Shown one piece after another: positions 757 to 15,546 of a stretch of 64,000 bases of DNA. The stretch comes from Candidatus Bathyarchaeia archaeon. GTDB lineage: Bacteria > Patescibacteriota > Microgenomatia > PFEM01 > JAFGMK01. The DNA lies in contig DATKWK010000023.1 in assembly GCA_035529595.1 (NCBI GenBank), positions 78,517 through 142,516 of the forward strand, given 5' to 3'. The notes under the pieces were generated by a model. The model worked only from the letters and a program-made list of their open reading frames with translations, had not been told where the DNA came from and did no database searches. A program made the position numbers and the translations under genes. Position 1 is the stretch's first letter. Every line of letters starts with the position of its first letter.

Positions 757-874
757 GATTATTTATATCTTATCAAAATTGACAGGTGTATATTATGGCC
801 TTTAGATAAAATACAAACAAATGGCTAAAGCAATAAGATTCTTCTTTAATGTGGTTTATCAAGGTCAAATAAAT

Positions 875-900
875 GGCAGGGGCTGGTGAACTTTGTCAGG
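875..900 (+). repeat. Cassette-boundary repeat copy 1 (core only: GGCAGGGGCTGGTGAACTTTGTCAGG)
   Basis: Matches the core of the repeat found at 2516, 6478, 7643, 8255, 9471. Confidence 0.7.
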
Positions 901-1003
901 AATCTATTTTTTTAGAAAAAAAATTGTTATAGAATCCGACTTAGTCTTCTCCTGACGTAATTTACGTTGCGGTTTGACAATATTTTTAGTATTATAGGCG
1001 ATA

Positions 1004-2461: not shown

Positions 2462-2515
2462 CAAATATACCAAAACCTCATTCAAAAACCAGATAATTAA
2501 TGAATTATTTTTCAT

Positions 2516-2560
2516 GTAGCAGGGGCTGGTGAACTTTGTTAGAACCTATTTTAGAGAATA
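2516..2560 (+). repeat. Cassette-boundary repeat copy 2
   Basis: GTAGCAGGGGCTGGTGAACTTTGTTAGAACCTATTTTAGAGAA. Confidence 0.8.
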
Positions 2561-2634
2561 AGCGCGTAGTTTATCAACTTCTTTGAGTCACAATGATTTT
2601 GCTTATGGTTAAATCTTCCTGATATAATCGTTTT

Positions 2635-3171
2635 ATGACTGGCAAGAGCGATAAATACCAGACGATTGATACTTATAATAAGACAGCAAAGATTCATTCT
2701 CAAAAGTTTGAGAATTACGGAGCAAGAATTGAAGATATTGAAAAGGCCTTTTCTTACATTGATAAATCAAATCCTAAAGTAATTGACATTGGTTGCGGTG
2801 ACGGCAGAGATGCAAAAGAGATTACTAAAAAAACTGATGATTATCTTGGCATTGATTTATCGGTTGAGCTGATTAAGATTGCCAGAAAAAAAGTTCCCCG
2901 AGGAAATTTTATAATAGCCGATTTTGAAACCTTTGAATATCCGCAGGGAGTAGATATAGTGTTTGCCTTTGCTGCCATACTCCATTCAGGCAGAGGAAGC
3001 GTAAAAAAATTACTGAAGAAAGTTTATCGATCCCTTACTCCTGGAGGAATTTTTTTTATCTCAACAAAATATGGTTCTTATCGTAGGAAGGTGATTGATA
3101 GAGACGGGCCGAAAGTAAATTTTCTTTATCGGCCTGAGGATATAATAAAAATGTCACCGGCTTGGGCTTGA
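2635..3171 (+). CDS. Class I SAM-dependent methyltransferase (small, 178 aa)
   Basis: VIDIGCGDGRDAKEI (motif I, GxGxG), followed by an acidic residue after beta-2 and the DIVFAFAAILH motif. Confidence 0.65.
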   Translation: MTGKSDKYQTIDTYNKTAKIHSQKFENYGARIEDIEKAFSYIDKSNPKVIDIGCGDGRDAKEITKKTDDYLGIDLSVELIKIARKKVPRGNFIIADFETFEYPQGVDIVFAFAAILHSGRGSVKKLLKKVYRSLTPGGIFFISTKYGSYRRKVIDRDGPKVNFLYRPEDIIKMSPAWA

Positions 3172-3391
3172 GGCAGTTTATCAAGATACTCGAATCTTGA
3201 GAGGCCAGAAATGGTTGACGATTATTCTTAAAAAGAGTCAGTTAAGATGAAGTTATTTTGATTATGAAGCAAAAAACATTTGATATAATAAATTTTAATG
3301 ACTGAAGATTTTGGGCAACTAAACATCTTTTTTAGAAATTTAAGGGTATTGATATTTGTGATACGATGATAACAATCTTGTCTCTTGAGAG

Positions 3392-3718
3392 ATGACCAAA
3401 AAACTGAAATATTTTACTATTATAGGAATAATTGCAATAGCGATGCTTTTAATCGTTGCTTACTTCTCAAACTCACTGAAAATATTTGGTTTATGTAAAC
3501 CGGGAATGGAACTGGGTACTATGCCTGCCGGCAGTTTCTGCTATAAGCCTAGCGGATATGACGGTAAACCCTGCAATAGGCAGACCGATTGCGGAACTGT
3601 AAGCTGTGTTTTGGTGGATAGATATAGCTTGAAAGGAAAATGTGAGGACATAGTTTTTGGTTGCCACCAATTAATTGATAAAGACGGTAATCTCGAGTCT
3701 TTAGTTTGTATTGATTAA
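3392..3718 (+). CDS. Small secreted/membrane-anchored cysteine-rich protein (108 aa), hypothetical
   Basis: N-terminal hydrophobic helix; 9 Cys in the mature part. Confidence 0.4.
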   Translation: MTKKLKYFTIIGIIAIAMLLIVAYFSNSLKIFGLCKPGMELGTMPAGSFCYKPSGYDGKPCNRQTDCGTVSCVLVDRYSLKGKCEDIVFGCHQLIDKDGNLESLVCID

Positions 3719-3783
3719 TAACGGGGGTAAATTATAATCCTGAGCGAGGTCGAAGGATTGAAAATAGTAAGCTTTACCGAACC

Positions 3784-3812
3784 ACTTTGTTGGAAACTGG
3801 TTTAGGGAGCAG
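3784..3812 (+). repeat. Degenerate copy of cassette-boundary repeat core (GAACCACTTTGTTGGAAACTGGTTTAGGGAG)
   Basis: Aligns with ...GTGAACTTTGTTAGAACCTATTTTAGAGAA of the full copies. Confidence 0.45.
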
Positions 3813-4225
3813 ATGAACAGCTTGGTAGTCTTTAATTCTTCCTCTTTAACTCAGCTTTTGACAGTTTATTCTCGAATAATTATACTAGTTTTAAATGATG
3901 GGGCAGTCAAAACAAAACCAAGATCAAAAAACAGAGCCTCAGAAAGTAAAAAGCTCGATAATTATTCCTTCTAAAGGGAAGGTTCTTGTTGGTATTGAAA
4001 CAGTCGGCAGTAGGGTTTAACTGCGAATAATAAAGATTTTCCTTGGCCCTTCTTCATCGAAACTGAGAATCGGTGTTTATCTTTTATTGATAATGGAAGA
4101 AGATCTAAGGCAATCTGGTCTCCTAACTGGTTTGCCATCAATTTAAGAGCTAAGGAAAGGTTCTTAAGGTAAAACGGAGATGGAAGCCAAAAGAAAGACT
4201 TAATTAACTATACAATTTTAACCAA

Positions 4226-6421
4226 ATGATTTTTTGGCCGCAGAAAAAAAGAGACCTTAAAAAGGTTATCATCATTATTTTCATGCTTCTAGTTATTGCC
4301 TTTTCTTTAATTGCCGTCCTTTTTAAAAGATTCAAAAACCTTGCACAATTTCCACCTTGTGACAATCTCTCAACTTTACACCTTGATTCTCAAGTACTAA
4401 CTTGCCCTCAAAGGGTTGATGAGACCGGTTGGATAGTCGAAAATGCCCAAGTAAAAGTGTTCCCCCATTGTTTAACAGTTATGAATTCTCGTTTCGGTTC
4501 GCGTTTCAATCTCGACTGGTATTTCTCAAATCAAAAAGTCACCTCAAGCACAATCGGTACTTTTGCCGATTATGATGTTAATTTAAATTTGGTTGTTCAA
4601 GAGCCGGATAAGGCCGAACAGCTTTTCCCATTATCAGCCAATAGTGATTTTCCCAGGCAATCAGTTGACCTTGGTCTGACTTATGAAAAGATCAATTTCG
4701 AGAGTGAAGACCTTCTGCTTTCATTTAATATCGTTTCTCCATTTTCGCCCAGTCAGTCAAGTCGTGACGATAATACCAAATTAAGTACAGCCCCTTTCTT
4801 CTATCTAGAACTATCCTTGGTTAATAAAACACCACTTTCCCAGGTCAAAAATATCTCTCTTTCTCTCGGTAATGCTCGAGAAATTAAAGATAAAAAAGAT
4901 TATTCGGTGGCATATTTCAATGACTATGCCCGAGAAGACGGGCAGCTTGCTTTAGCCAGTAGCAGAAAACAAACCGATATTGCCTCATTTATTAACAATA
5001 ACCGCGGTGGTTTTATTTGGAAAGTAAACCTTAAACCTTATTCTCAAGATACGGTAAGATTTATTTACGCTGGTTATCTCGAAGGTACCTCCCTTACTGA
5101 TAGTCGCCAAGAGAAAAAAAGAGAACTCAAATTTGCCTACCAACAGTGGTTTAATAACATTGATTCAGTTATTAATTTTGCCTTAGATCACGAGCCGGAA
5201 ATTGAAGATAAAAGAAATAAATTTGAGCAGAATGCGAAGAAACTTTCTAAGTCTCCGAAAATGTACTGGCTCCTTGCTCAATCATTCCATTCTTATATTG
5301 GTAATACCTGGCTGGTTTTTGATAAGGAAAAAGACGATTTAGAATATTATGTTTGGGAAGGAGAGTTTAAATATCTTAACACTCTAGATGTTGCTCACGA
5401 CTATGGGGTTTTAGAAGGTATATATTTTCCCTGGGTGTTAAAAGCAGAACTCAAATCTTGGCAAAAGAGTGCTAAAAAAGACGAAAAAGGCACTGTTATT
5501 CCCCATGACTTAGGATCGCGTTTTGTTATTAAATCATCTCAGGCCTACGGCATTGACGGTTGGGAAACCTCTGGGATGCCAGTGGAAGAAAATGCAAATT
5601 TCATCCTACTTACATATTGGTATTGGCATCAAACTAAAGACCATCAGTTTATTAGGGAAATCACGCCATTTTTAAAAGAATTGATAAACTCTCTTATGGC
5701 ACGTGACGGTAACCAAAATGGCTTGGCTGACCAACTGATCAGGATGACTACCTATGATAATGACGGCAACTCTGCCTTAAAAGAGGCTCCTGACGGAACA
5801 TACCTTGGTTTAAAGCAGTTGGCCGCTTACCTTTCTGTTGAGAAAATTTTTCAATTTCTAAAAGAAGATGAGTATCAAAAGATAGTTAATGAAGAGGCTA
5901 AACTAATCGTTCAAAGCCTAGAAAAGGCCCAATCAACCTATGGTTTTATACCCCTTACGATAGATCCTTCTTTTCAGGAAAAAAACCAATTTAACAACCG
6001 AACTGTTTTAGGCACCGAGGAACAGGGTTTTGTTTTTATCAGCGGGTTATTCTATCATGCTCTTACCAATTTTGACCATCCTTTACTAAAAGAAATTATC
6101 CCTCTACTTTCTAAGAACTATCCCACCGCCTATCAAAAAAGTCTGGTAAAAAATGAGAGCGACGAGATCATTGGACTGAGGCTTGCCGAAAATCAAGACT
6201 TAGCTTTGGGTTGGTTTTCCCATAGTGTCATTGCCGATTATATTGCGAAAAAACTCTTTAATCAGAATTATCAATCTACAGAAATTTTCTTTCCCCTTCT
6301 TTATGACAATCCCTTTAGTTTTGCTGATGGCCAATTTTTTAAGAAACCTTTTTATCCTCCTCAAAATACTCTCGTTTTTTATCCTCGGGGAGTTTCTCTT
6401 TTTGCCTATCTCAAGGAATAA
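4226..6421 (+). CDS. Large membrane-anchored extracytoplasmic protein (731 aa), hypothetical; possibly an (alpha/alpha)6-type glycosidase-like fold
   Basis: Single N-terminal TM helix. No catalytic motif recognised with confidence. Confidence 0.35.
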   Translation: MIFWPQKKRDLKKVIIIIFMLLVIAFSLIAVLFKRFKNLAQFPPCDNLSTLHLDSQVLTCPQRVDETGWIVENAQVKVFPHCLTVMNSRFGSRFNLDWYFSNQKVTSSTIGTFADYDVNLNLVVQEPDKAEQLFPLSANSDFPRQSVDLGLTYEKINFESEDLLLSFNIVSPFSPSQSSRDDNTKLSTAPFFYLELSLVNKTPLSQVKNISLSLGNAREIKDKKDYSVAYFNDYAREDGQLALASSRKQTDIASFINNNRGGFIWKVNLKPYSQDTVRFIYAGYLEGTSLTDSRQEKKRELKFAYQQWFNNIDSVINFALDHEPEIEDKRNKFEQNAKKLSKSPKMYWLLAQSFHSYIGNTWLVFDKEKDDLEYYVWEGEFKYLNTLDVAHDYGVLEGIYFPWVLKAELKSWQKSAKKDEKGTVIPHDLGSRFVIKSSQAYGIDGWETSGMPVEENANFILLTYWYWHQTKDHQFIREITPFLKELINSLMARDGNQNGLADQLIRMTTYDNDGNSALKEAPDGTYLGLKQLAAYLSVEKIFQFLKEDEYQKIVNEEAKLIVQSLEKAQSTYGFIPLTIDPSFQEKNQFNNRTVLGTEEQGFVFISGLFYHALTNFDHPLLKEIIPLLSKNYPTAYQKSLVKNESDEIIGLRLAENQDLALGWFSHSVIADYIAKKLFNQNYQSTEIFFPLLYDNPFSFADGQFFKKPFYPPQNTLVFYPRGVSLFAYLKE

Positions 6422-6429
6422 TTTATATT

Positions 6430-6535
6430 CCCACCTCAAGGTGGTTTTCTCCTTGCACCTGGGATATTTTTTCAATTTTTGAGCCTAAAAAGCAGGGGCT
6501 GGTAAACTTTGTTGGAACTTATTTTAGAGAAAGTT
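6430..6535 (+). repeat. Cassette-boundary repeat copy 3 (extended form: palindrome module CACCTCAAGGTGG + core)
   Basis: ...ATTTTTTCAATTTTTGAGCCTAAAAAGCAGGGGCTGGTAAACTTTGTTGGAACTTATTTTAGAGAAAG. The upstream module is shared with copy 4. Confidence 0.8.
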
Positions 6536-6652
6536 TTAATAATTCTTCAATGACAGTTAGTCAAGGATGCACTTAAGTTCCCACATCACCTCTTTATAAA
6601 GTTAATAAATTAGCTTAAACTGTGTTCTTGATACTTAATATTTTTTAGACAC

Positions 6653-6696
6653 TTGACATTGTGTGAAAATCTTTGCTAGTGTTTCTATGTATGAAG
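6653..6696 (+). promoter_or_regulatory. Promoter-like TTGACA...TAGTGT/TATGTAT upstream of the 6776 ORF
   Basis: TTGACA at 6653, AT-rich -10 candidates 18-25 nt downstream. Confidence 0.3.
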
Positions 6697-6728
6697 TTAA
6701 ACTGGGCTACCTATTTAACTTAGTTATT

Positions 6729-6754
6729 AAATCCGCTTATGGGCGGATTTTTTT
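6729..6754 (+). terminator. Intrinsic-terminator-like hairpin plus T-run in the 5' leader of the 6776 ORF (possible attenuator)
   Basis: AATCCGCttatgGGCGGATTTTTTTT immediately followed by RBS AGGAGGTG and the ATG. Confidence 0.5.
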
Positions 6755-6775
6755 ATGGAAAGGAGGTGAAAAAGA

Positions 6776-7537
6776 ATGAATTACAAGTTATTAATCAGTA
6801 TTTTTACAGCCTCGTTGGTATCAGTTTCTATATTTGTCATAGGATTTTTCATGGGTCAAACAAAAGTTTCTCCCCAGCCTCCTCAACAAGTCATTTTAGG
6901 AGAAAAAAATCAATCCGCAAGCAAGGACTGTATTACCATTCAAGACGGTAAACTGACTTATTCGCCGGGCCATTATCTTGACGAAACTCCGATTTCGACA
7001 GGTTATGATGAGTATGGATACAATTATCAAGCTCACATGTTTAATGGCTCATATGCCAATGTTTACCTTGGCGGAGGCGACTTTCCACCTTATAAAGGTA
7101 ACGATGTAGAATATTTGGCCGAAAATCCTGGGGCAGAAAATGAATGGTATTGGCCTTATCGAGATGTTGAATTGCTGATGAGATGGAACGATAGTTGGAT
7201 TGCCAATCAGGATTGTGACGACGATGGTTTATTGGACAGGCACTTTGGTAATACTAGCTATGTAGGTTCTGGGGCCTGGGAGACTAATCATCAATCAGGC
7301 GTTTATGAAGTTGAAGGCAGAACCTGTAAGTGGAATTATTTCGTCAAGATTGTAGCTGTCCCCGCTGATGCTATATTGGAAAATGGTATCTGGAAAACGG
7401 CCAACGGGGCCGAAATTGGCCTTGATATTTGGGGTCAGTTTGCCATAATTCAACAAATTTACAATGACCCGTGTGAAGGATCCCACGGGGTAGAATATCT
7501 CAGTCCTGCCGGACCTGGATTTGGCAAGTGGAAATAG
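6776..7537 (+). CDS. Secreted hypothetical protein (253 aa, signal/anchor helix)
   Basis: Strong RBS AGGAGGTG; N-terminal hydrophobic segment. No recognisable motifs. Confidence 0.45.
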   Translation: MNYKLLISIFTASLVSVSIFVIGFFMGQTKVSPQPPQQVILGEKNQSASKDCITIQDGKLTYSPGHYLDETPISTGYDEYGYNYQAHMFNGSYANVYLGGGDFPPYKGNDVEYLAENPGAENEWYWPYRDVELLMRWNDSWIANQDCDDDGLLDRHFGNTSYVGSGAWETNHQSGVYEVEGRTCKWNYFVKIVAVPADAILENGIWKTANGAEIGLDIWGQFAIIQQIYNDPCEGSHGVEYLSPAGPGFGKWK

Positions 7538-7596
7538 GAAACGCTGATTCAGCTTTCAGTGTCCAAAATATAGCCACTTTTCCTTAAAGTAAATAC

Positions 7597-7690
7597 ACCT
7601 TGGAGGTGTCTTTCCCTTGACACCTTGGAAATTTTTCAATTTCTGAGCCTAAAAAGCAGGGGCTAGTGAACTATGTTAGAACCTGGTTTA
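7597..7690 (+). repeat. Cassette-boundary repeat copy 4 (extended form with palindrome CACCTTGGAGGTG)
   Basis: ...GGAAATTTTTCAATTTCTGAGCCTAAAAAGCAGGGGCTAGTGAACTATGTTAGAACCTGG. Confidence 0.8.
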
Positions 7691-8197
7691 TTAACTCTTG
7701 ATATTATTTAAGCTGAAAAAGTGAAATTTATCTACACCCCAACCCGGGGGATACAATCCAAAGCCTTGAGGTTTGGCAATTTCCCGAGCACCAAGATTCT
7801 TGAAGTAGCGATATGAATTGATATTTGTTTTTCTGATAACGGCTACCAAGAGTGCTTTTTTATAAGTATGTTTAGCCGTAGATAACAGTTCATTAATCAT
7901 TTTCTTGGCAATGCCTTTCTTTCGGTATCCGGGATGGACGACTAGGGAACCGACTTCAAGAACTGGCGTGTTATCTTTCTTGCCATTTTCAAAGAACTTA
8001 GCAAAGCCGACAGTAATATTGTTGAATAAGGCAAGAACTCCCTGGTTTTCTTTCAAAATTCTTTCTATCTCTTGTTCTTCCAGAACTAACATGTGAGACT
8101 TTTCTTGCCGGAGAAGATTTCTGATCTGCCTTATGTGAGAACTATTATCTGTGTAGTGGAAAAGCTTAATTTCAGTTTTTTCTCTTTTCTGCATCAT
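7691..8197 (-). CDS. GNAT family N-acetyltransferase
   Basis: VHPGYRKKGIAKKMINELL = acetyl-CoA-binding motif A (R/Q-x-x-G-x-G/A). Confidence 0.7.
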   Translation of the reverse strand: MMQKREKTEIKLFHYTDNSSHIRQIRNLLRQEKSHMLVLEEQEIERILKENQGVLALFNNITVGFAKFFENGKKDNTPVLEVGSLVVHPGYRKKGIAKKMINELLSTAKHTYKKALLVAVIRKTNINSYRYFKNLGAREIAKPQGFGLYPPGWGVDKFHFFSLNNIKS

Positions 8198-8254
8198 GAC
8201 TAAAATTATACCCTTTTTATTAAATCTAGAGCGAGAAGTACGAAGAAGAAGGTT

Positions 8255-8295
8255 GCAACAGGGGCTAGTGAACTTTGTTAGAAACTACTTTGCGG
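8255..8295 (+). repeat. Cassette-boundary repeat copy 5
   Basis: GCAACAGGGGCTAGTGAACTTTGTTAGAAACTACTTTGCGG. Confidence 0.75.
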
Positions 8296-8323
8296 ATGTT
8301 CGCAATTCATGTAGAATATTATT

Positions 8324-8911
8324 ATGGCCGAAAAGTGTGTTGGTGAGATAAAAAAAGCTGGTTTGATTGGTGTGATCTATGAGGTGAGGATAAGACTCGA
8401 GCCTTTGGTTAAGGCTATTCAGGAGGGTGCCTTGGAACCTGATGATTTTCAGAAAGTGGCTGATTTTGGTGCTGGCTATGGTAATTCTGCAAGAGCGATT
8501 ATGATCGCCATGCCCGGAGCAGATATAACTGCACTAGAACAGAACGAGGAGCTTGCTGAAGTGATTATTAAGAGAGGCATACTGCCAGAAGAGAGAGTAA
8601 AAAGAGGTGATGGGATAGACTTTTTATCAGAAAGTAGGAACGCTCGAAAATTTACATTAGTTACCGCCTTTGGTTTGGAGCCGATTAAAGATAGCAGTTT
8701 GTTCAAAAAGTTCGTCATTGCTGCGGATAATGCCCTTAGAGATAAAGGAAAGCTACTAATAGAATCCGACGCTAAAAGCATGGGAGTTGTTCGTAGCGAA
8801 TTGAGAAAAGCTAGTGTGAATGCTTATTCGAGAGATGTCGGTCTGGGAGGTATGGTTGTTTTGACTCGTGACGAATGCGATAAGGTAGCTTCGTATTATA
8901 ACAGTATATAA
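8324..8911 (+). CDS. SAM-dependent methyltransferase-like protein (195 aa), GC higher than flanks
   Basis: VADFGAGYGNSARAI (motif I). Confidence 0.5.
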   Translation: MAEKCVGEIKKAGLIGVIYEVRIRLEPLVKAIQEGALEPDDFQKVADFGAGYGNSARAIMIAMPGADITALEQNEELAEVIIKRGILPEERVKRGDGIDFLSESRNARKFTLVTAFGLEPIKDSSLFKKFVIAADNALRDKGKLLIESDAKSMGVVRSELRKASVNAYSRDVGLGGMVVLTRDECDKVASYYNSI

Positions 8912-8950
8912 GCAAGATAGAATTTGGGTCTTTTTTTTGAATTAAGATAG

Positions 8951-9010
8951 TTTGGCAGAGGCTAAAGCCTGTCCGCCTCTGGAGGAAACTTTGTTAGTAA
9001 CTTCTATCAG
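8951..9010 (+). repeat. Cassette-boundary repeat copy 6 (variant: hairpin GGCAGAGGC...GCCTCTGG + GAAACTTTGTTAGTAAC)
   Basis: Shares the AACTTTGTTAG(A/T)AAC tail with the other copies. Confidence 0.55.
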
Positions 9011-9423
9011 GCTGAAAGATACTTATCGATAAACAAACCAACCTTTTCGTTTACTTGTTTAATAACGTCAGGGTAGAGGCGGTAATCGTGGGTACAATTA
9101 ATTTTGTGTAACTCTTTTGGCTCAGGAATTGTCTTATAAATTTCTCTGACCTGTTTAGGTGTAGTGAACTCATCTTTGGTGGCATAAAAAATAATTTTAG
9201 GTTTCATGCAAGTTTTTAAGACTTCTGCGTCATTATATTTACTTCCATCTTTGAAGTAGTTTAATGAAGCTGTAAACTTCTTTTTATTCTTAGTCCTTTT
9301 TGTGCCGGGAGGCAAATCTCTGTAATCAATATATAGACCAGCTTTTAAGGTTTTGGTATCAGGTGGCGAGGGAGTTCCTAATGATGGATTAATTAAAACT
9401 TTAGCATTAAAAGGGGACGGTTC
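9007..9423 (-). pseudogene. C-terminal fragment of an alpha/beta-hydrolase (about 100-138 aa; intact enzymes about 250-300 aa)
   Basis: ...IIFYATKDEFTTP...CTHDYRLYP: the Asp and His of the catalytic triad at the usual C-terminal spacing. No nucleophile-elbow region. The annotated start (9315) is TTG and the frame is open back to 9423, where it abuts repeat copy 7. Confidence 0.45.
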
Positions 9424-9470
9424 TCAATCAGGTACGAGATTAGTAACTTCCAATAATTTTTGGTTTATGT

Positions 9471-9550
9471 CTGAGGCTAAAAAGCAGGGGCTGGTGAACT
9501 ACAATCGTGTAAACCGATTTGTAGTAAACTATGTTGGAAACTATTTTCAG
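9471..9550 (+). repeat. Cassette-boundary repeat copy 7 with a 25-nt hairpin insertion (ACAATCG...CGATTTGT) inside the core
   Basis: CTGAGGCTAAAAAGCAGGGGCTGGTGAACT[acaatcgtgtaaaccgatttgtagta]AACTATGTTGGAAACTATTTTCAG. Confidence 0.75.
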
Positions 9551-10086
9551 ATTTGAGTTAGTTGATATGTCCAACCAGGTTGCCATTTCCAAGGGGCTGG
9601 AATGACTTCTTTTAAAGGTAAACCTTTAATTAAATGTTCTAATCCATATTGAGTAGCCCTGTGTCCAATTATCATTACCTTCTTATTATCATAATCTCTA
9701 AGCAAGTCCCGGAGAAAATTTTCCATTCTTTCTGAACATTGAGAATAGCTTTCTCCATTAGGAAAGGGGACATTAATTCTTTTTGGTTTTTCTGCATCAA
9801 CCTCACTACTTGGATGTTGGGTATAATCTCCGTAATCGCACTCTCTTAATCTTTTATCTTGAATGATTGGAAGGTTTCTGTTTGGAAATGCAATCTCTCC
9901 AGTTTTGTATGATCTTTGTAAGTCAGAACAGAAGATTGCATCAAAAGTGACATTCTTGTATCTTTCTCCCAGCTCTGCAGCTTGTTTTTCTCCAAGTGAG
10001 GAAAGTTCCACATCAAAATGTCCAGAAGAAAGATGTGTTTCGTTATCTTTAGTTGTTCCGTGTGATTCAAAAACTACTTCAACCAT
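9547..10086 (-). CDS. Histidine phosphatase (phosphoglycerate-mutase-like) family protein with atypical SHG instead of RHG
   Basis: VVFESHGTTKDNE (RHG-like motif, R replaced by S) and downstream IIGHRATQ (second conserved His). Confidence 0.6.
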   Translation of the reverse strand: MVEVVFESHGTTKDNETHLSSGHFDVELSSLGEKQAAELGERYKNVTFDAIFCSDLQRSYKTGEIAFPNRNLPIIQDKRLRECDYGDYTQHPSSEVDAEKPKRINVPFPNGESYSQCSERMENFLRDLLRDYDNKKVMIIGHRATQYGLEHLIKGLPLKEVIPAPWKWQPGWTYQLTQI

Positions 10087-10101
10087 ACGGGAATTCTAAC
10101 A

Positions 10102-10270
10102 CATTTGAGCCTAAAAAGCAGGCCTTAGTTGACGACATTCCCACCTCCAAGGTGTGTTTCCCCTTGCTGGTAAACACCTTCTTTCACTTCGGAGGTGCTT
10201 TTCTTCCTGTACCTTGGGAAGGTAAGGAATATCACCTTCAAGTTGTAAAAGTCCTGTTTCGAAGGGTATA
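10102..10270 (+). repeat. Cassette-boundary repeat copy 8 (5' core TTGAGCCTAAAAAGCAGG followed by a palindrome-rich module: CACCTCCAAGGTG, CACTTCGGAGGTG, CACCTTCAAGTTG)
   Basis: The core is truncated after AGCAGG. The downstream segment carries the same palindrome type as the upstream modules of copies 3 and 4. Confidence 0.55.
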
Positions 10271-10279
10271 TTTGGCGCC

Positions 10280-10549
10280 CTAATCTGTTTCAAGTGTGTT
10301 TTTAAGCATCTGCTTTATTCTTCGCCAACCAGCGGTTGTTTTAAAGTATTTTTCGCAGCTGATCGCGTCTTTTTGATTATTAAACGAACAATAGAAAATT
10401 AATTCGTAAGGAACATTAGGTTTAGTGGCTTTATTCTCGCCTTGATTATGTTCTTTTAGCCTGATTTTTAGGTCAGAAGTGAAGCCAATGTAAAGCTTAT
10501 TATTTCTCTTACTTCTGAGAATGTAAGTATAGAAGTACTGGCCGGCCAC
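10280..10549 (-). CDS. GIY-YIG nuclease domain protein (small stand-alone, 89 aa)
   Basis: YFYTYILRS..NKLYIGFTSDLKIRLKEHN = GIY...YIG motif with conserved R and E/N. Confidence 0.75.
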   Translation of the reverse strand: MAGQYFYTYILRSKRNNKLYIGFTSDLKIRLKEHNQGENKATKPNVPYELIFYCSFNNQKDAISCEKYFKTTAGWRRIKQMLKNTLETD

Positions 10550-10642
10550 GTTCAGTGTGATTTCTCCTTTCCGAATCGACTAGTCAAATCTTTTTAAATT
10601 AGTTGACATAAACTCGATACATATTTAGTTGACACATGAACG

Positions 10643-10716
10643 TGGCAGGGGCGGAGGGAATCGAACCCCCGATTGCTGTTTTGGAGACAGCAGTTATACC
10701 ACTTAACTACGCCCCT
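10643..10716 (-). tRNA. tRNA-Trp (anticodon CCA), 3'-CCA encoded
   Basis: rc = AGGGGCGTAGTTAAGTGGTATAACTGCTGTCTCCAAAACAGCAATCGGGGGTTCGATTCCCTCCGCCCCTGCCA. Anticodon loop CUCCAAA; 7-bp acceptor stem. Confidence 0.85.
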
Positions 10717-10803
10717 AGATATTTAAAAGCTATTATACATTGCTTCTGGCTCTTAAAACAGAGGAGTGTTTATTTGGTTGGCAATGGTGATCTTTCGGAA
10801 AAG

Positions 10804-10977
10804 CTACTTCAGCTTGCTGGTTTCCTTGTGAATAGTATGCTTGCGGCAACGTCGACAATATTTCTTAAGCTCCAGCTTGTCCGGGGTGTTAACTTTATTT
10901 TTTTCGGTCACGTAGTTTTGCGATTTGCAAACAGTGCAAACTAAAGCCGAGATTTGCCTTGGTCCTTTTTTCGCCAT
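10804..10977 (-). CDS. rpmG: 50S ribosomal protein L33 (57 aa), not in the supplied ORF track
   Basis: Translates to [57 protein letters not shown] with a CxxC...CxxC zinc ribbon. RBS GGAGG 9 nt upstream. Classic rpmG-tRNA-Trp linkage. Confidence 0.85.
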
Positions 10978-11086
10978 ATTTTTAGCCTCCTAAAGGAGAT
11001 TCTATCACGAAAAATGAAAAAAAGAAAATGAAATCTCTAGCTTCCGAAAGTGGGGAATTAATAAAGTTCTTCAAAACCTCGGAATT

Positions 11087-11539
11087 TCAGATTTTGATTC
11101 GGTAGGGCTTGCGGATAACTATACCTGATTTGAGTTTGGAATCGATAGTCAAACGGGCGTTTTGGATATTGCCATGCCAGCGGCAGTAGCTCCCCGAGCA
11201 GGTACCGAATAAAAGCTCCCGTTGTTGGCCGGCTGTTTCCTGTGTGGCGGTTCCCATCGCTCCCTGAGAAATTCCATTGCTGGTATAGGTTAGAGTGTAA
11301 GTTACAGAAACGGCATCGCCGAAATCCCCGAAATTGATTAATACCCCCAGGCGGTCGGGTCTTAATTTGACTGAAGACTTGACACCCCGGCTCCGGCTAT
11401 AATTTGTCGTAGTGGTAGCAGTAGTTTTGGTACCCCGAGACGGTCGAGCTTTGGCTGCCAAAGAGAAGTCAGCCGTTATCAGGGCTAATAACCAAAGCGA
11501 GAGTGAAAAGAAAATAATCAGCCTTTTTTTTCTATTCAT
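11087..11539 (-). CDS. Secreted hypothetical protein (150 aa)
   Basis: N-terminal signal-like hydrophobic segment; Thr-rich linker. Confidence 0.4.
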   Translation of the reverse strand: MNRKKRLIIFFSLSLWLLALITADFSLAAKARPSRGTKTTATTTTNYSRSRGVKSSVKLRPDRLGVLINFGDFGDAVSVTYTLTYTSNGISQGAMGTATQETAGQQRELLFGTCSGSYCRWHGNIQNARLTIDSKLKSGIVIRKPYRIKI

Positions 11540-11634
11540 ATTTCCGCTCTTGCCAACTTAGTTAAAAGAAGATAAACTGGCATTAGTAAAACAATAATAT
11601 ATTTAGCGCTATTTGGCAACCACTAAATAGAATA

Positions 11635-12288
11635 ATGTCGCAAACCAATCTCAAAAAAAACTTGATTATTTTAATCATTATTATCGCTGTTGCCGGTCTG
11701 GTGTCGGTGGGAATATTTCTGTCAAAAAAGATTTTTGAAAAGCCGGGCTTAGTCGAGCCTATTCTGCCAGAAGAACTGCCCCAGAAGGCGGTAACGATGT
11801 CAGTGTGGGAAGACCCGGCCGGTTTTACTTTTTCTTATCCGGCGGAAGTCAAGATTGACCCGCATGAAGAAGACGAAGAAAATTATGCCCATCTTGACTT
11901 AACGTCGCCTGATTACGAAGGCAACATTGTGATTTGGGTCAAAGACACGAAATATCGGACTATTGATAGTTGGTTAAAAGACGAAGGGACTGACGGCCAG
12001 GCAGTTGATACTGAGTTAGGAGGCGAGCCGGCCAAAAAAGTTGTCTACAGTAATCCGGAAAAGATAATTACGGCGGCCATCGATGTTGACGCTTTGGTAT
12101 TGATTGAAATGACTCCTGATCTACGCGGTTATTGGCAAGATGTTTACAGTAAAGTTCTCGATACTTTTGTATTTATTCCTATAGGACAGCAAAACGAAGG
12201 CACAAAATCTTCTCAGCCGGCCAGTGAAGAAAGCGGTACGGGTACGTCGGGCAATATTATCATGGAGCCTGAAGAAGTGATTGAATAG
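11635..12288 (+). CDS. Membrane-anchored hypothetical protein (217 aa)
   Basis: N-terminal TM helix; acidic C-terminus. Confidence 0.4.
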   Translation: MSQTNLKKNLIILIIIIAVAGLVSVGIFLSKKIFEKPGLVEPILPEELPQKAVTMSVWEDPAGFTFSYPAEVKIDPHEEDEENYAHLDLTSPDYEGNIVIWVKDTKYRTIDSWLKDEGTDGQAVDTELGGEPAKKVVYSNPEKIITAAIDVDALVLIEMTPDLRGYWQDVYSKVLDTFVFIPIGQQNEGTKSSQPASEESGTGTSGNIIMEPEEVIE

Positions 12289-12315
12289 GTCTTCAAAAGT
12301 TACCGCTTGGGATGA

Positions 12316-13665
12316 ATGAGATTTAAAAGGACCATTTGCAGTTTTTTGATTCCGTTCGCTATCTTTCTGGGTTTTATTTACCTCTCTTTTCGCTTAACCG
12401 CATTTCCCAGTTTGTTCAATAACCAAGCCGATGGTTTTGCTTATTATTTGCCGTTACGTTCTTTTTATTTTGATGGTGATTTTCGTTTTGCCGATGAAAA
12501 TTCATACTTTGAATCTCTGACCGGCTGCCTACCTTATGACTGGCGTCATGTGACTGAGACCGGACACTCCGTTTATCATTATTCAGTTGGCCCGTCTTTT
12601 CTTTGGCTGCCGTTTGCCAAGCTTTTTTCAACCGAATACCGGGTTGCACCTCACTTATTGCTTGAATCAAAACAGCTCAACAGACCGCCGCCAATCGGTT
12701 TTTTCGGCAGCTCCTTTAAAAGCTTAGTTTTGGGAACTTATTTTTACGGAATCGTCGGCTTGATATTAATTTATTTATTTTTAAAACAAGTTACCAAGGG
12801 AAGTGGGTATTTATACTGGTTGACGGTAGTATTGATCTTTGGCGCTACCCCGTTTGTCTATTATTTTTTATACCAACCCTTAATGCCCCATGTGATGTCG
12901 GCTTTCTCAAATAGCCTTTTTCTATATTTTTGGTCGCGACGGATTGCAAGCAAGAGAAACCTTGATTGGTTTCTGGCCGGTCTTATTCTCGGGTTGGCCG
13001 CTTTAATCAAATGGCCTAACTTTCTCTTAGTTTTTTTCTTGATGATCGAATTAATTTTTGACGTCAAAGATAAACGAACCGGTTTTGTTCACGGAGCAGC
13101 GGCTTTTTTATTATGCATGGTAGGGTTTTTGATTACCTTTTCACCTCAGCTGATATTTTGGAAACAGGTCTATAGACGTATTTTAGTTATCCCCCAGGGA
13201 GCCGGCTTTTTTTCTTTAAAGATCACCAATTTTTTTAAATTTTTATTTTCGTGGCACCATGGCCTTTTTAGCTGGCACCCGCTTTTTTTACTCGCGATTA
13301 TCGGATATCTTATTTCCATTTTTAAAAAAAAAGATATTCGCTTGGCCGGAAGCAATAAAATACTTCTCTGGTCGAGCGTTTTAACCTTGGCGGCGGCAGC
13401 CATGATTTCCGGTCTCAATATCGATTGGCACGGCAGCGATTCTTTCGGAGCCCGACGGATGGTTGATTTCAGTCCGCTTTTTGCTTTAGGTCTTTTTTGG
13501 TTTTTACGGCGGTTCAGGAAAAAGCTGACCTATGTTTTCCCGATTTTGGTTGTTCTTATAGTTTATAATCTGTTATTTGCTATCCAGTATGCTCAATGGA
13601 AACTGGGGCATTTCGGACCGGTGTCTCCGGTTCAGGTGATACAAAATACTTTGAAAAATATGTAA
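12316..13665 (+). CDS. Polytopic membrane protein (449 aa), possibly a GT-C-type glycosyltransferase
   Basis: About 10-12 predicted TM helices. No definitive motif. Confidence 0.4.
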   Translation: MRFKRTICSFLIPFAIFLGFIYLSFRLTAFPSLFNNQADGFAYYLPLRSFYFDGDFRFADENSYFESLTGCLPYDWRHVTETGHSVYHYSVGPSFLWLPFAKLFSTEYRVAPHLLLESKQLNRPPPIGFFGSSFKSLVLGTYFYGIVGLILIYLFLKQVTKGSGYLYWLTVVLIFGATPFVYYFLYQPLMPHVMSAFSNSLFLYFWSRRIASKRNLDWFLAGLILGLAALIKWPNFLLVFFLMIELIFDVKDKRTGFVHGAAAFLLCMVGFLITFSPQLIFWKQVYRRILVIPQGAGFFSLKITNFFKFLFSWHHGLFSWHPLFLLAIIGYLISIFKKKDIRLAGSNKILLWSSVLTLAAAAMISGLNIDWHGSDSFGARRMVDFSPLFALGLFWFLRRFRKKLTYVFPILVVLIVYNLLFAIQYAQWKLGHFGPVSPVQVIQNTLKNM

Positions 13666-13712
13666 TAATCCTATCAGGATGCTTATTAAAATTTGTTTTA
13701 GGAGAGTATAAA

Positions 13713-15170
13713 ATGGCTAACGGTGAAAGTAGAACTCCAAGTGCAATTTTTGAGCCAGTTGGCGGTTCGGCGATAAAGGTTGCTCCTACGCAGGATCTAA
13801 TTGGCATTCTTCGTGACCAAAAAGGGCTGCCTGATGTTGGCACAGAGCCTTTTAGGGTTAAAATGGGAACCTCCGGGGGTGGTTCAGTAACTAGCGCTGA
13901 AGGAAGATTTCATTCTTGGGTCTTTAACCCCTTAGGGACAGTGATTCTGGCTTTTGCCAAGGAAAACCGTGGAAAGCTTGAGATTATCGGCTTAGCAGTC
14001 GGCGGTGAACACTTTACTCTTACTCCGGAGGATGTTGGTACAATCGTCATGATCAATGATAAAGCGACTATGGTTTACCAAGGCCAGGAGGGGCGTGAGG
14101 CAGTTTTTACGCCAGTGCGGGCGCGTTCAGCTTTAGAATTTAAAGAAGAGCCGGCATTGCCGGTTCTTCTTCCGGAAGCCAACAAAGACAATTTCCCTCA
14201 AATTGTCAAATCATTAATCGGCATTGAAGGGATTAACCAGCCTCTAACCGATGATGAACTGGGAAGACTTCTGTGGCAGGCAGGGAGGTTAATTACTGGT
14301 CCCTTGGACAGAGGTGGTTATCCGCCGGAGATATCCATTCGGGCTTTGGCCGCAGCGGTAGTTGCTCATCGCTCTTATGTGGAGGTTAGTCGTCGTTTTG
14401 ACTGGCAGGTAGAGCAGATACTGCCGGCAGAAGTTTTATCGGAAAACCGGCAATTAATGCCCGTATTTAAGGCTTTGACCCGATTGGCGAATGAAGTTGG
14501 TAAAGTTCACCGGACTCCCGGAGTATCGGAAGCGGAAAGCAATATCTGGCAACCGCGGCAGAATCGTGTCGGCCGATTCCAATTGACGACCTTTGCTTTT
14601 CCGGCAATTCATATTAAAGATAGTCGTGGCCAAGAGACGTGCCAGCCTTTTTTGGTTGCTTGTGCTGACGAGGAATTGCCGGTGGCTCAGCAGGAGTTAC
14701 TGAAGAGAATGGCCGTTCTATTTGGGTTGTCGTCCCAGGGAAAGACAGCCCAGGCAGAAGTTCTTCTTACCAGCCAGATCTTACCCGCCGGGGTGATGGA
14801 GGAAGCTTTTGTCCATCTGCTGCCAGCCGATCAGACTGAAGGCAGTGATCAAGTTGATTTTAATTTAATCTTAAACTTGTTTGGCCAGGATTCAGGAAGC
14901 GTCAGCCTTCTCTTACCGCGGAATTCCCCATTTATTAAGGGGCTTATTAGCCGGGGATTGCTAGCCCAAGGCCGGCAATCCTCAGGAAAAAACATGACCG
15001 GTGATTGGGTCCTCTGTGATCGTTGTACGATGACTCAAGGTGATTCGGTTCAATTCATGGCGATGTATATTTCCGGAAAAAATGTTGAAAACGAGGTAGT
15101 GACGGTGAGTTCCAAATTAGCTTGCCCGGGTGCAATGGTGGTTGTTGTTGCCCGTCCTTTTCGGGATTGA
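13713..15170 (+). CDS. Hypothetical protein (about 485 aa), high-GC (about 50 %) relative to neighbours
   Basis: Start chosen at ATG 13713 (RBS AGGAGAG); the track ORF from 13596 overlaps the preceding gene. Confidence 0.45.
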   Translation: MANGESRTPSAIFEPVGGSAIKVAPTQDLIGILRDQKGLPDVGTEPFRVKMGTSGGGSVTSAEGRFHSWVFNPLGTVILAFAKENRGKLEIIGLAVGGEHFTLTPEDVGTIVMINDKATMVYQGQEGREAVFTPVRARSALEFKEEPALPVLLPEANKDNFPQIVKSLIGIEGINQPLTDDELGRLLWQAGRLITGPLDRGGYPPEISIRALAAAVVAHRSYVEVSRRFDWQVEQILPAEVLSENRQLMPVFKALTRLANEVGKVHRTPGVSEAESNIWQPRQNRVGRFQLTTFAFPAIHIKDSRGQETCQPFLVACADEELPVAQQELLKRMAVLFGLSSQGKTAQAEVLLTSQILPAGVMEEAFVHLLPADQTEGSDQVDFNLILNLFGQDSGSVSLLLPRNSPFIKGLISRGLLAQGRQSSGKNMTGDWVLCDRCTMTQGDSVQFMAMYISGKNVENEVVTVSSKLACPGAMVVVVARPFRD

Positions 15171-15229
15171 AAAAGATTCAGGACGAAGAGCTATTTTTCA
15201 TGTGAAGCAAAGCTTTTTGAGCCTGGAGT

Positions 15230-15302
15230 GGGGGTCGAACCCACGACCTCATTCTTACCAAGAATGTGCTCTGCCAACTGAGCTATCCAGGCTTTGGCTT
15301 TC
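15230..15302 (-). tRNA. tRNA-Thr (anticodon GGT)
   Basis: rc = GCCTGGATAGCTCAGTTGGCAGAGCACATTCTTGGTAAGAATGAGGTCGTGGGTTCGACCCCCACTCCAGGCT. Anticodon loop UUGGUAA. Confidence 0.85.
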
Positions 15303-15334
15303 TTAAAATATTATAGATTCCAAGTGCCGGGAGC

Positions 15335-15417
15335 AGGATTTGCACCTACGAAGGCTTGCGCCAGCGGTTTTACAGACCGCTCCGTTTGACTACTTCGGTA
15401 TCCCGGCAGGAATTTCT
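15335..15417 (-). tRNA. tRNA-Tyr (anticodon GTA), long variable arm
   Basis: rc = GCCGGGATACCGAAGTAGTC...GCGGTCTGTAAAACCGC...(long extra arm)...GGTGCAAATCCTGCTCCCGGCA. 83 nt. Confidence 0.8.
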
Positions 15418-15472
15418 TTTGCAAATTATACCAAATTATTTAGATTCTAACCCACACCTTAGCCTCTTTTAG

Positions 15473-15546
15473 AGCTGGAGGTGGGATTCGAACCCACGAC
15501 CGATGGTTTACAAAACCATTGCTCTGGCCAACTGAGCTACTCCAGC
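15473..15546 (-). tRNA. tRNA-Thr (anticodon TGT)
   Basis: rc = GCTGGAGTAGCTCAGTTGGCCAGAGCAATGGTTTTGTAAACCATCGGTCGTGGGTTCGAATCCCACCTCCAGC. Anticodon loop UUUGUAA. Confidence 0.8.

Follow-up and report, generated by a model that had tools for sequence, protein, structure and literature searches.

The 64-kb stretch of DNA analysed here (hereafter the window; contig DATKWK010000023.1), together with a further 9 kb that were examined to its left, carries a tRNA-Trp gene 87 nt downstream of rpmG, the gene for ribosomal protein L33, on the same strand, and, beyond the 3' end of this tRNA gene, a row of about nine gene cassettes that extends over 9.8 kb (about 883-10642) and is punctuated by copies of a short repeat (Table 1). 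Both rpmG and tRNA-Trp are ordinary housekeeping genes. The rpmG product matches Ribosomal_L33 of Pfam with E=9.4e-23 and 80.8 bits (cut-off 25), its translation contains a four-cysteine zinc ribbon (CxxC pairs C14/C17 and C41/C44), and a GGAGG ribosome-binding site can be read about 9 nt 5' of the ATG, all of which bears out the initial annotation of this DNA, a reading of the sequence without database searches. The gene had also been called unannotated, which only reflects the 60-amino acid cut-off of the list of open reading frames (ORFs) used in that reading; a 57-amino acid Ribosomal_L33 protein is present in the public gene calls of ENA ERZ27256827 contig k141_4284862, of which the window covers positions 78517-142516. 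The window L33 is 100% identical to P0001, and its nearest named relatives, at 75-88% identity, belong to Candidatus Amesbacteria (Microgenomates group, Patescibacteria); the source of the window is an Amesbacteria-like Microgenomates member of Patescibacteria. The tRNA-Trp gene encodes its CCA, and its 3' end, which points to lower coordinates and anchors the array, faces first a GIY-YIG gene (89 amino acids, 10280-10549, - strand, 93 nt past the tRNA end; match to PF01541 with E=1.5e-16) and then the cassettes, as originally described. In an Rfam scan of the window, gathering scores were reached by the four tRNAs only; besides tRNA-Trp, these form a tRNA-Thr/tRNA-Tyr/tRNA-Thr cluster which lies 4.2 kb from rpmG with four genes in the gap and which is the conserved upstream context of rpmG-tRNA-Trp in Microgenomates (L008, L015, L031-L033, L037 and many metagenome loci; L numbers denote the loci used in the comparison).

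Table 1. The tRNA-Trp locus and the adjoining cassette array, in window coordinates.
Feature	Position	Strand	Remark
rpmG, ribosomal protein L33, 57 amino acids	10804-10977	-	Pfam PF00471
tRNA-Trp(CCA)	10643-10716	-	ARAGORN; Rfam tRNA 66.7 bits
Junction core GCAGGGGC inside tRNA-Trp	10645-10652	+	Same 8-mer in five repeats
Cassette 1, adjoining tRNA: GIY-YIG nuclease-domain gene (10280-10549, -)	10123-10642		PF01541
Junction 1, degenerate: canonical left arm TGAGCCTAAAAA + GCAGG, diverged right arm CCTTAGTTGAC	10097-10145	+	
Cassette 2: histidine phosphatase gene (9547-10086, -)	9550-10117		PF00300, E=6e-35
Junction 2, right arm duplicated internally (cores 9484 and about 9515)	9460-9549	+	
Cassette 3: 102-amino acid fragment, alpha/beta hydrolase-like	9007-9315	-	Weak PF10142 match
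Junction 3, partial, right arm only: AACTTTGTTAGTAACTTCTAT	8966-9011	+	
Cassette 4: methyltransferase-like gene, 195 amino acids	8324-8911	+	Weak MTS / Methyltransf_23 matches below Pfam cut-offs
Junction 4: ACAGGGGCTAGTGAACTTTGTTAGAAACTACTTT	8235-8297	+	
Cassette 5: GNAT acetyltransferase	7691-8197	-	PF00583, E=1.4e-12
Junction 5, full site: TTTCTGAGCCTAAAAAGCAGGGGCTAGTGAACTATGTTAGAACC	7632-7698	+	
Cassette 6: 253-amino acid protein, N-terminal hydrophobic stretch, without Pfam match	6776-7537	+	
Junction 6, full site	6468-6533	+	
Cassette 7: 731-amino acid glycoside hydrolase family 52-like protein	4226-6421	+	PF03512, E=2e-20
Junction 7, partial, right arm: CACTTTGTTGGAAACTGGTTT	3780-3809	+	
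Cassette 8: S-adenosylmethionine (SAM) methyltransferase (2635-3171) and 108-amino acid Cys-rich protein (3392-3718)	2635-3718	+	PF13649, E=6e-17
Junction 8	2508-2559	+	
Cassette 9: 485-amino acid inositol-monophosphatase-like protein	1004-2461	+	PF00459, E=3e-10
Junction 9, last recognisable repeat, carries TGGCAGGGGC; left arm atypical	856-915	+	
tRNA-Thr(TGT) / tRNA-Tyr / tRNA-Thr(GGT) cluster	15219-15546	-	ARAGORN

Nine junction repeats were identified between positions 856 and 10145, all on the + strand and one at each gene boundary, so that the cassette array reported in the initial annotation is real. Copies of the repeat lie at 876, 2519, 6492, 7656, 8258 and 9484, partial copies at 3783, 8987 and 9527, and a copy whose right arm is diverged at 10118; five of the 11 cassette genes are on the - strand. 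Homologs of the GIY-YIG cassette are present in 10 other loci, and junction 8 has 75% nucleotide identity to positions 690-820 of L014. The two genes of cassette 8, of which the one for the Cys-rich protein encodes an N-terminal hydrophobic stretch, have no recognisable junction between them. At junction 2 (9484-9549), the right arm starts as GCAGGGGCTGGTGAACTAC, stops, and restarts 30 nt further on as GTAGTAAACTATGTTGGAAACTATTTT. GC-rich short hairpins with T-rich runs (CCACCTCAAGGTGG TTTTCTCC and similar) are found at 6431-6450, 7598-7625, 10142-10165 and 10546-10569, that is, 35-75 nt ahead of several junction cores and also ahead of the tRNA end. They resemble terminators that a cassette carries at its end. 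The same structure recurs in independent ENA and Logan assemblies of this genome and in about 100 other contigs, which rules out an assembly artefact.

To the left of junction 9, no further repeat was recognised over 9.9 kb. Given that a repeat-bounded cassette in L114 has 59% identity to a CYTH gene situated 6 kb to the left of the window, and that a Ham1 gene, also left of the window, has a homolog beside a repeat in L100, the accessory region probably continues to the left of the recognisable array end at 876. This flank also contains a 30-nt direct repeat, ATCTTTCGAATTCTGGATCAAAAAACCGGT (L034 1-30 and L001 about 1140-1175, i.e. about -7857 to -7822 relative to the window), the two copies of which flank a two-gene module that encodes a 196-amino acid protein without Pfam match and a 245-amino acid protein that combines a winged-helix N-terminus with a weak PLD-like domain. 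Both copies coincide with breaks in the Logan assembly, and the module may be another small mobile module within the accessory region.

The 8-mer GCAGGGGC links the array to the tRNA gene. It occurs six times in the 64 kb, and all six occurrences fall between 876 and 10652 on the + strand, five of them in repeats and the sixth at the end of tRNA-Trp; shuffled sequences contained 1.4 matches on average, and none of 100 shuffles contained six. Within the tRNA gene, this core comprises the first C of the CCA, the discriminator base and the last 6 nt of the acceptor stem, and it is the proposed crossover region. The initial annotation suggested that the 3' region of tRNA-Trp had served as the integration site of an island, and that a direct repeat of the tRNA 3' end should then be sought at the far end of that island. 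Such a repeat is present: the terminal 10 nt of the tRNA gene, TGGCAGGGGC (10643-10652, +), including the complement of the encoded CCA, are directly repeated at 873-882, and GCAGGGGC is found at four internal junctions. The two bases of TGGCAGGGGC beyond the 8-mer carry little weight, this copy being one base off the usual ..ATTG-CAGG left-arm ending. The core shared with the repeats and the gene order in relatives (see below) support the location of the integration site, but the island itself is a row of about nine independent single-gene cassettes and not one integrated element.

The relationship between tRNA and repeat extends beyond the core. In many genomes, the trailer of tRNA-Trp consists of the canonical left arm; examples are L090, L094, L104 and L108 (..TGAGGCTATTTT followed directly by GCAGG) and L028 (..CTGAGGCTAATTT followed directly by GCAGG), and the trailer in L008 shares a 27-nt identity with the left arm of a repeat in the L018 array, which comes from another genome. 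Because these trailers equal the left arm, the site at the tRNA is a hybrid that consists of left arm, core and tRNA body, whereas the internal sites consist of left arm, core and right arm.

The consensus of the repeat spans about 47 bp, T(T/C)TGAGGCTAAATT-GCAGGGGC-TAGTAAACTTTGTCAGGAACTTCTTT. A scan of species-representative genomes with a degenerate pattern identified 23 loci, most of which are labelled Patescibacteria; the labels include Microgenomates, Amesbacteria, Woesebacteria, Beckwithbacteria, Paceibacterota and two single-cell genomes. About eight loci are labelled Gammaproteobacteria and one Bathyarchaeia, on contigs with Patescibacteria-type gene order, and these labels are probably binning or labelling errors; contigs labelled in this way include L011 (DATLAM010000036.1), P0001 and L009, L012, L020, L022, L025, L026, L028 and L029. 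A single match in Paenibacillus looks like chance. The scan of metagenomes gave more than 118 loci among the matches listed, and that of viral contigs gave no matches, on which ground a phage origin was rejected. With a profile built from the repeat copies, nhmmer detected 287 copies in 105 of the fetched loci, at a median core-to-core spacing of 602 bp (interquartile range 478-821). Mixed orientation was seen in none of 80 metagenome loci, and in all 31 loci that hold tRNA-Trp (8 from GTDB, 20 from metagenomes and 3 fetched independently via L33) the repeats are on the 3' side of this gene in the same relative sense. The array region coincides with contig ends in several assemblies.

In one alternative view, the repeat would be a functional DNA or RNA element present in dispersed copies beside accessory genes (a terminator, a promoter or a protein-binding site), with cassettes exchanged by homologous recombination between repeats after natural transformation and no dedicated recombinase involved. 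No recombinase is linked to the array, the 47-bp repeats and the conserved tRNA could supply flanking homology, terminator-like hairpins are situated just upstream of several window repeats (6431, 7598, 10142), and passages in two papers describe natural competence in some Patescibacteria (PMC10633639, PMC10187176). We nevertheless consider this explanation decidedly unlikely, given that RNAalifold shows no conserved fold, that no consistent promoter spacing can be read from the sequences, and that genes occur in both orientations relative to the repeat; the single orientation per locus and the fixed geometry at one tRNA (31 of 31) would be unexpected for a generic regulatory element, and a hybrid tRNA site requires at least one precise non-homologous joining.

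In another view, the repeats would be leftover 3' ends of a protein-coding gene, duplicated by elements that integrate into it. The right arm is open in the frame that reads QGLVN(F/Y)V(R/G)(N/T)(F/Y/W)(F/Y), in the window at 877-909, 2520-2552, 6493-6525, 7657-7689, 8259-8291 and 9527-9547 as well as in other loci; many differences between copies fall at third codon positions, and this three-base periodicity is puzzling in a non-coding site, given that no gene ends in the right-arm peptide. The longer + frame, (E)(A/P)KKQGLVN(F/Y)V(R/G)(N/T)(F/Y/W)F, is open in all window copies. However, upstream of the motif the frame stays open for only 0-50 amino acids in the 41 copies inspected, which come from 27 sources, no intact gene ending in the peptide was found among these 41 copies, and variants with apparent one-base shifts (GTCAGGAAC versus GTTGGAACC) would break the frame. 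A coding remnant is thus hardly credible, and was dropped on the ground that no long ORF ends in a QGLVNFVRNYF-like peptide in any of the 41 copies.

In the initial annotation, secE and nusG were held to be missing from their expected place and to have been replaced by the island. They are indeed missing from that place. SecE, NusG, L11 and L1 are absent from the Pfam lists of the window and the 9 kb to its left, which do include housekeeping genes (def, fmt, L28, mreBCD, topA, S2, tsf, frr, proS, dnaX and recR), and tblastn over the same DNA with SecE, NusG, L11 and NTP-transferase of a relative returned nothing better than E=0.13; no homolog of secE, nusG or rplK was found from 20 kb downstream to 53 kb upstream of the locus. 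Hence secE-nusG are situated either at another place in the genome or more than 20 kb past the tRNA-Trp 3' end. Relatives (L033, L037, L101, L030) share the gene order rpmG, tRNA-Trp, a variable region, in some cases an NTP-transferase gene, then secE, nusG and rplK. L033 has, after rpmG and tRNA-Trp, three repeat matches, one of them at the tRNA junction, followed by two genes and by secE, nusG, rplK, rplA, rplJ and rplL, with the start of secE 4.4 kb past tRNA-Trp; L101 and L030 are laid out in the same manner, and the NTP-transferase gene precedes secE in L030 and L033. In L037, 6.2 kb of accessory genes without recognisable repeats separate tRNA-Trp from secE, and two Amesbacteria loci (L031, L032) contain more than 9 kb of accessory genes (AbiEii, HEPN/nucleotidyltransferase and toxin-antitoxin pairs) with degenerate repeats only. 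Two further loci (L035, L036), in which the L33 gene is inside the spc operon, proved irrelevant to this locus. Since relatives keep secE-nusG-rplK after the variable region, the ancestral linkage of rpmG and tRNA-Trp with secE-nusG does exist in this lineage, with the variable region inserted into it. The variable region does occupy the place of secE and nusG, but these genes are displaced rather than replaced, and to ascribe the order rpmG, tRNA-Trp, secE, nusG to most bacteria, as had been done, is an overstatement.

The cassettes between tRNA-Trp and the distal genes are exchanged as units, with similarity breaking at the repeats. The histidine phosphatase cassette of the window (9524-10122) is homologous, core to core, to a cassette between two repeats in L060 (72% nucleotide and 75% amino acid identity), and the neighbours of the two are unrelated. 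Cassettes common to L047 and L101, to L060 and L107, and to L089 and L107 are 90-95% identical, and in each case homology stops at the cores; the comparison of L047 with L101 shows that the right arm moves with the following cassette, and that of L060 with L107 that the left arm moves with the preceding one. One cassette adjoins tRNA-Trp in L107 and is 8 kb away from it in L089, the sequences being shared through ..CCCAAATTGCAGGGG and divergent thereafter. L098 and L101 have a distal block that is 96% identical and differ in the cassettes towards the tRNA (at least three in L098, one in L101). L011 retains the synteny of the window on the rpmG side (rpmG and the genes for a 150-amino acid and a 217-amino acid protein), yet has other cassettes after tRNA-Trp (a 121-amino acid ORF and a cytidine deaminase). 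Thus, the array of the window is not common to its relatives, and neither this nor the placement of secE-nusG just upstream of position 1, the two findings which the initial annotation named as speaking against its interpretation, was encountered. Arrays appear, from these comparisons, to turn over quickly.

Among the cassette families of the sample, NUDIX hydrolases are the commonest (21 copies in 18 loci) and GIY-YIG nucleases the second (11 copies); GNAT acetyltransferases, methyltransferases and toxin-antitoxin-like genes are also among the contents. With respect to the repeats, 104 ORFs are sense and 104 antisense. Homologs of the GIY-YIG gene of cassette 1 were found, in addition, directly 5' of, and on the same strand as, tRNA-Trp or tRNA-Tyr, and end there within a few bases of the tRNA start (L015 946-1263; L042 and L111, which have the same sequence; L037 2558-2827).

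The locus has hallmarks of tRNA islands, namely its position at the 3' end of a tRNA gene, direct repeats of that end and variability among relatives, and an ordinary genomic island is accordingly one way to account for the locus: integrase-bearing elements (phage-like, tycheposon-like or resembling integrative and conjugative elements) would have integrated serially and decayed to cargo and tRNA-end repeats. A serine recombinase (L089) and a remnant of one (L072) do occur at junctions. The units, however, are only about 0.6 kb with one gene each, integrase remnants are almost nil in 287 junctions, and whole cassettes are swapped precisely at sites. Moreover, the repeat comprises 5-10 nt of tRNA plus about 40 nt of non-tRNA sequence that is conserved across several lineages of Patescibacteria (Microgenomates, including Amesbacteria, Woesebacteria and Beckwithbacteria, and Paceibacterota), which points to a selected site and not to the debris of decay. 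We therefore regard an ordinary tRNA island as an unlikely explanation.

A row of short, mostly single-gene cassettes with a co-oriented repeat also recalls a classical chromosomal integron or an integrase-less attC cluster, in which IntI inserts promoterless cassettes into attI by way of folded single-stranded attC, and both the cassette sizes (median 602 bp) and the gene contents resemble those of integron cassettes. Yet RNAalifold on 36 aligned copies gave no consensus structure on either strand, and there is no inverted-repeat architecture; of nine single-strand folds, seven were ordinary and two (z about -2 to -2.6) owed their stability to flanking hairpins outside the repeat. An attC-like hairpin was rejected on these grounds, there being no structure in the 36-copy alignment and none specific to the repeat in the nine folds. 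A dif-like site was likewise discarded, given that only GTAAACT, judged by eye, resembles a XerD arm and the consensus contains no dyad. A Xer-like tyrosine recombinase is encoded 0.5 kb away from the tRNA cluster in L028, and this is the only one: no other was found when 73 kb of DNA surrounding the window array and about 0.5 Mb from other array loci were examined, and phmmer with a Xer-like integrase and E. coli XerD against 891 ORFs of array loci detected L028 alone, so a linked tyrosine recombinase was abandoned as a candidate. The even split of ORF sense is unlike that of integron cassettes, and insertion takes place at a tRNA 3' end with no attI beside intI. Given the lack of IntI, of a hairpin-forming site and of a bias in gene orientation, the array is not a classical integron, and we consider any reading that would keep it within that class highly improbable.

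The analysis establishes the anatomy of the array, the core in common with the tRNA, the conservation and fixed geometry of the site relative to tRNA-Trp in many Patescibacteria, the exchange of cassettes with break points at the repeats, and the place of the variable region in relatives. On balance, we think it probable that the 3' end of tRNA-Trp is the insertion point of a gene-cassette platform whose cassettes are exchanged by site-specific recombination. Under this scenario, a cassette would be a unit, in most cases of one gene and with 0.6 kb as the median length, that begins with the right arm (GCAGGGGC-TAGTAAACTTTGTCAGGAACTTCTTT) and ends with the left arm (TGAGGCTAAATT). Upon recombination with the tRNA end, the shared core (GCAGG or GCAGGGGC) would rebuild the end of the acceptor stem, the left arm of the incoming cassette would become the new 3' trailer of the tRNA, and older cassettes would be displaced away from it. 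All sites of the resulting row would point the same way, the one at the tRNA being a hybrid and those between cassettes being full sites. Insertion would occur mainly at the tRNA-proximal site, and the enzyme would act in trans, the most likely one being a large serine recombinase of the family represented in L089.

The L089 enzyme (491-594 amino acids; Resolvase, Recombinase and zinc ribbon domains in Pfam) is encoded by a gene that abuts the 3' end of tRNA-Trp, with its final codons running across the core (..AATTCACGC TGGGCAGG). The tRNA-side flanks of L089 and of L101, a locus with an ordinary cassette at this junction, have 96% identity in translation. The recombinase gene is flanked by 58-nt perfect inverted repeats that start in the last 8 nt of the tRNA, and a second inverted pair, of 95 nt, brackets the next 6.4 kb (features at L089 1-2060 and 8450-8544); the 95-nt repeated piece resembles a degenerate tRNA 3' half. 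L072 (727-990) contains a remnant of the C-terminus of an L089-type recombinase that is joined via TGGGCAGGGG to a canonical cassette right arm, and thus a recombinase unit has occupied a cassette position in an array. The family is large, with more than 7900 proteins at E<1e-20. A member with 61% identity (L157) lies on the strand opposite tRNA-Glu(CTC) and overlaps the 3' end of this tRNA gene, with nested inverted repeats of 103 and 97 nt around the recombinase (L157 4972-8565). The 1.5-kb segment that contains an MFS transporter gene has one orientation in L162 and the opposite one in L157, L159 and L160 (99.7% identity), a natural inversion polymorphism; given this inversion between samples of the segment flanked in the tRNA-Glu homolog, L089-type enzymes appear to act at tRNA 3' ends in natural populations. 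That this family supplies the cassette recombinase is a tentative possibility, a lead and not a demonstration. We view with more doubt the broader proposal that Patescibacteria may own an integron-like gene-capture platform in which the 3' end of tRNA-Trp, and occasionally of other tRNAs, would serve as 'attI', the 47-bp sites would be non-hairpin and double-stranded, and cassettes would be inserted, excised and sometimes inverted by a large serine recombinase specific for tRNA ends, the gene for which would lie elsewhere or on rare master units.

Several observations speak against exchange by site-specific recombination at tRNA-Trp or against the proposed enzyme. Within 73 kb of the window array there is no recombinase gene of any kind, and a serine recombinase or its remnant is present in only 2-3 of about 110 loci (intact in L089, as a remnant in L072/L085). 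To our knowledge, large serine integrases recombine only attP with attB and do not reuse hybrid sites, so repeated insertion at the hybrid tRNA site would require unusual behaviour of such an enzyme. Neither a circular cassette nor an empty site was observed, and secE-nusG were not located in this genome in the window and the 9 kb to its left. The sequence in common with the tRNA measures only 5-10 nt and is reduced to GCAGG where the acceptor stem of tRNA-Trp differs. L075 and L101 are 95.3% identical over 1595 nt (flank, tRNA-Trp and first cassette) and lose similarity exactly at the first core; the cassette next to the tRNA is thus common to these two loci while the distal parts differ, which shows that exchange also takes place away from the tRNA end. 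Finally, the same repeat family is found beside tRNA-Leu(TAG) (L053, which equals L018, 2767-8023; L088 53-1530) and tRNA-His (L054 95-2046) in the same geometry. Because repeat arrays are present 3' of these genes too, tRNA-Trp is the main anchor but not the sole one. Partial copies of the tRNA T-arm were noted downstream of tRNA-Leu genes.

The surroundings of the locus are variable as well. In the window, the gap between rpmG and the tRNA-Thr/Tyr/Thr cluster (10978-15218) is occupied by genes for a 150-amino acid protein with an N-terminal hydrophobic stretch, a 217-amino acid protein, a PMT_2-type glycosyltransferase and a 524-amino acid protein without Pfam match. In several relatives, the distance from tRNA-Thr(GGT) to rpmG is 0.3-1 kb; L011 has only the first two of the gap genes, and L037 has inserted genes in every gap of the stretch from tRNA-Thr/Tyr/Thr through rpmG and tRNA-Trp to secE. 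The insertion hot spot looks like this whole stretch, beyond the tRNA-Trp end alone. A protein of about 210 amino acids with an N-terminal helix-turn-helix (HTH; matches to HTH_23, IS630-type and resolvase-type HTH) and an uncharacterised C-terminal part is encoded directly 5' of tRNA-Trp in L113 (1899-2564), L101 (7185-7844) and L075 (263-922), and beside tRNA-Tyr or tRNA-Thr of the same cluster in L090 (6127-6750) and L033 (9212-9817). It has no catalytic-domain match and is absent from the window.

Patescibacteria account for a large share of bacterial diversity and have very small genomes with few recognised mobile elements, and for this reason their acquisition of accessory genes is poorly understood. 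In the full-text literature on Patescibacteria (candidate phyla radiation), we found no description of tRNA-Trp-anchored cassette arrays or of this repeat, and a widespread platform of this kind seems, as far as we could find, to be undescribed. A phylum-wide platform at one tRNA would provide an easily searchable locus at which flexible genes of Patescibacteria are collected, among them NUDIX hydrolases, methyltransferases, GIY-YIG nucleases and toxin-antitoxin or Abi-type genes, and the 47-bp site could be used as a probe for cassette amplification by polymerase chain reaction or for targeted metagenomics, much as attC primers are used for integrons. If the integron-like interpretation is true, the platform would be a main route of accessory-gene exchange for these tiny genomes. 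The enzyme would also be attractive for genome engineering should it prove to be a serine recombinase able to use a tRNA-end site repeatedly. For annotation, it matters that rpmG and tRNA-Trp are separated from secE-nusG by up to 20 kb or more in this group and that assemblies and bins tend to break at the array region.

Among known systems, integrons, including sedentary chromosomal integrons and clusters of attC sites lacking integrases (CALINs), share with the arrays described here a fixed insertion point that heads a co-oriented row, one site per short cassette, the shuffling of cassettes between genomes as units, and a cargo of accessory enzymes and toxin-antitoxin-like genes; many integron arrays, too, are without an adjacent recombinase. 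In contrast, the site in Patescibacteria has neither a hairpin nor R/L box symmetry and there is no IntI, the place of insertion is a tRNA gene, whose 3' end would be rebuilt at each event, the orientation of cassette genes is random (104:104) with no common Pc-type promoter logic, and the host range is Patescibacteria.

The tycheposon islands of Prochlorococcus are tRNA-anchored islands built by successive site-specific integration (bioRxiv 10.1101/2020.12.28.424599). They resemble the present arrays in that they start at the 3' end of a specific tRNA, have tRNA-end repeats at their boundaries, vary in content among close relatives and are arranged such that newer insertions push older ones outward. 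Tycheposons, however, are multi-gene elements with their own integrase, hallmark replication genes and att sites of about 40 nt of tRNA sequence (bioRxiv 10.1101/2020.12.28.424599), whereas the units described here are single genes of about 0.6 kb without integrase and with sites of 5-10 nt of tRNA plus about 40 nt of conserved non-tRNA sequence.

Large serine recombinase systems have sites of similar size (about 45-50 bp), no long identity between partner sites, and a recombinase gene beside att whose 3' end reaches into the site, as in L089 and L157. The known ones, however, move whole phages or elements by attP x attB recombination, we know of no serine integrase that builds recombinase-less arrays of single-gene cassettes or reuses a hybrid site, and the link between such enzymes and the cassettes comes from two loci only.

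Xer dif/pdif modules and integrative mobile elements exploiting Xer (IMEX) are likewise recombinase-less modules with short conserved sites and an enzyme encoded elsewhere. A pdif site is a dyad of 28 bp in which two inverted 11-bp arms, one for XerC and one for XerD, flank a 6-bp spacer, and such sites alternate in orientation; the site in Patescibacteria, by contrast, is without dyad symmetry, both in RNAalifold and by eye, and all its copies are co-oriented. The present system, then, has the logic of both integrons and tRNA islands and departs from the defining features of each, IntI and attC in the former and element-borne integrases in the latter.

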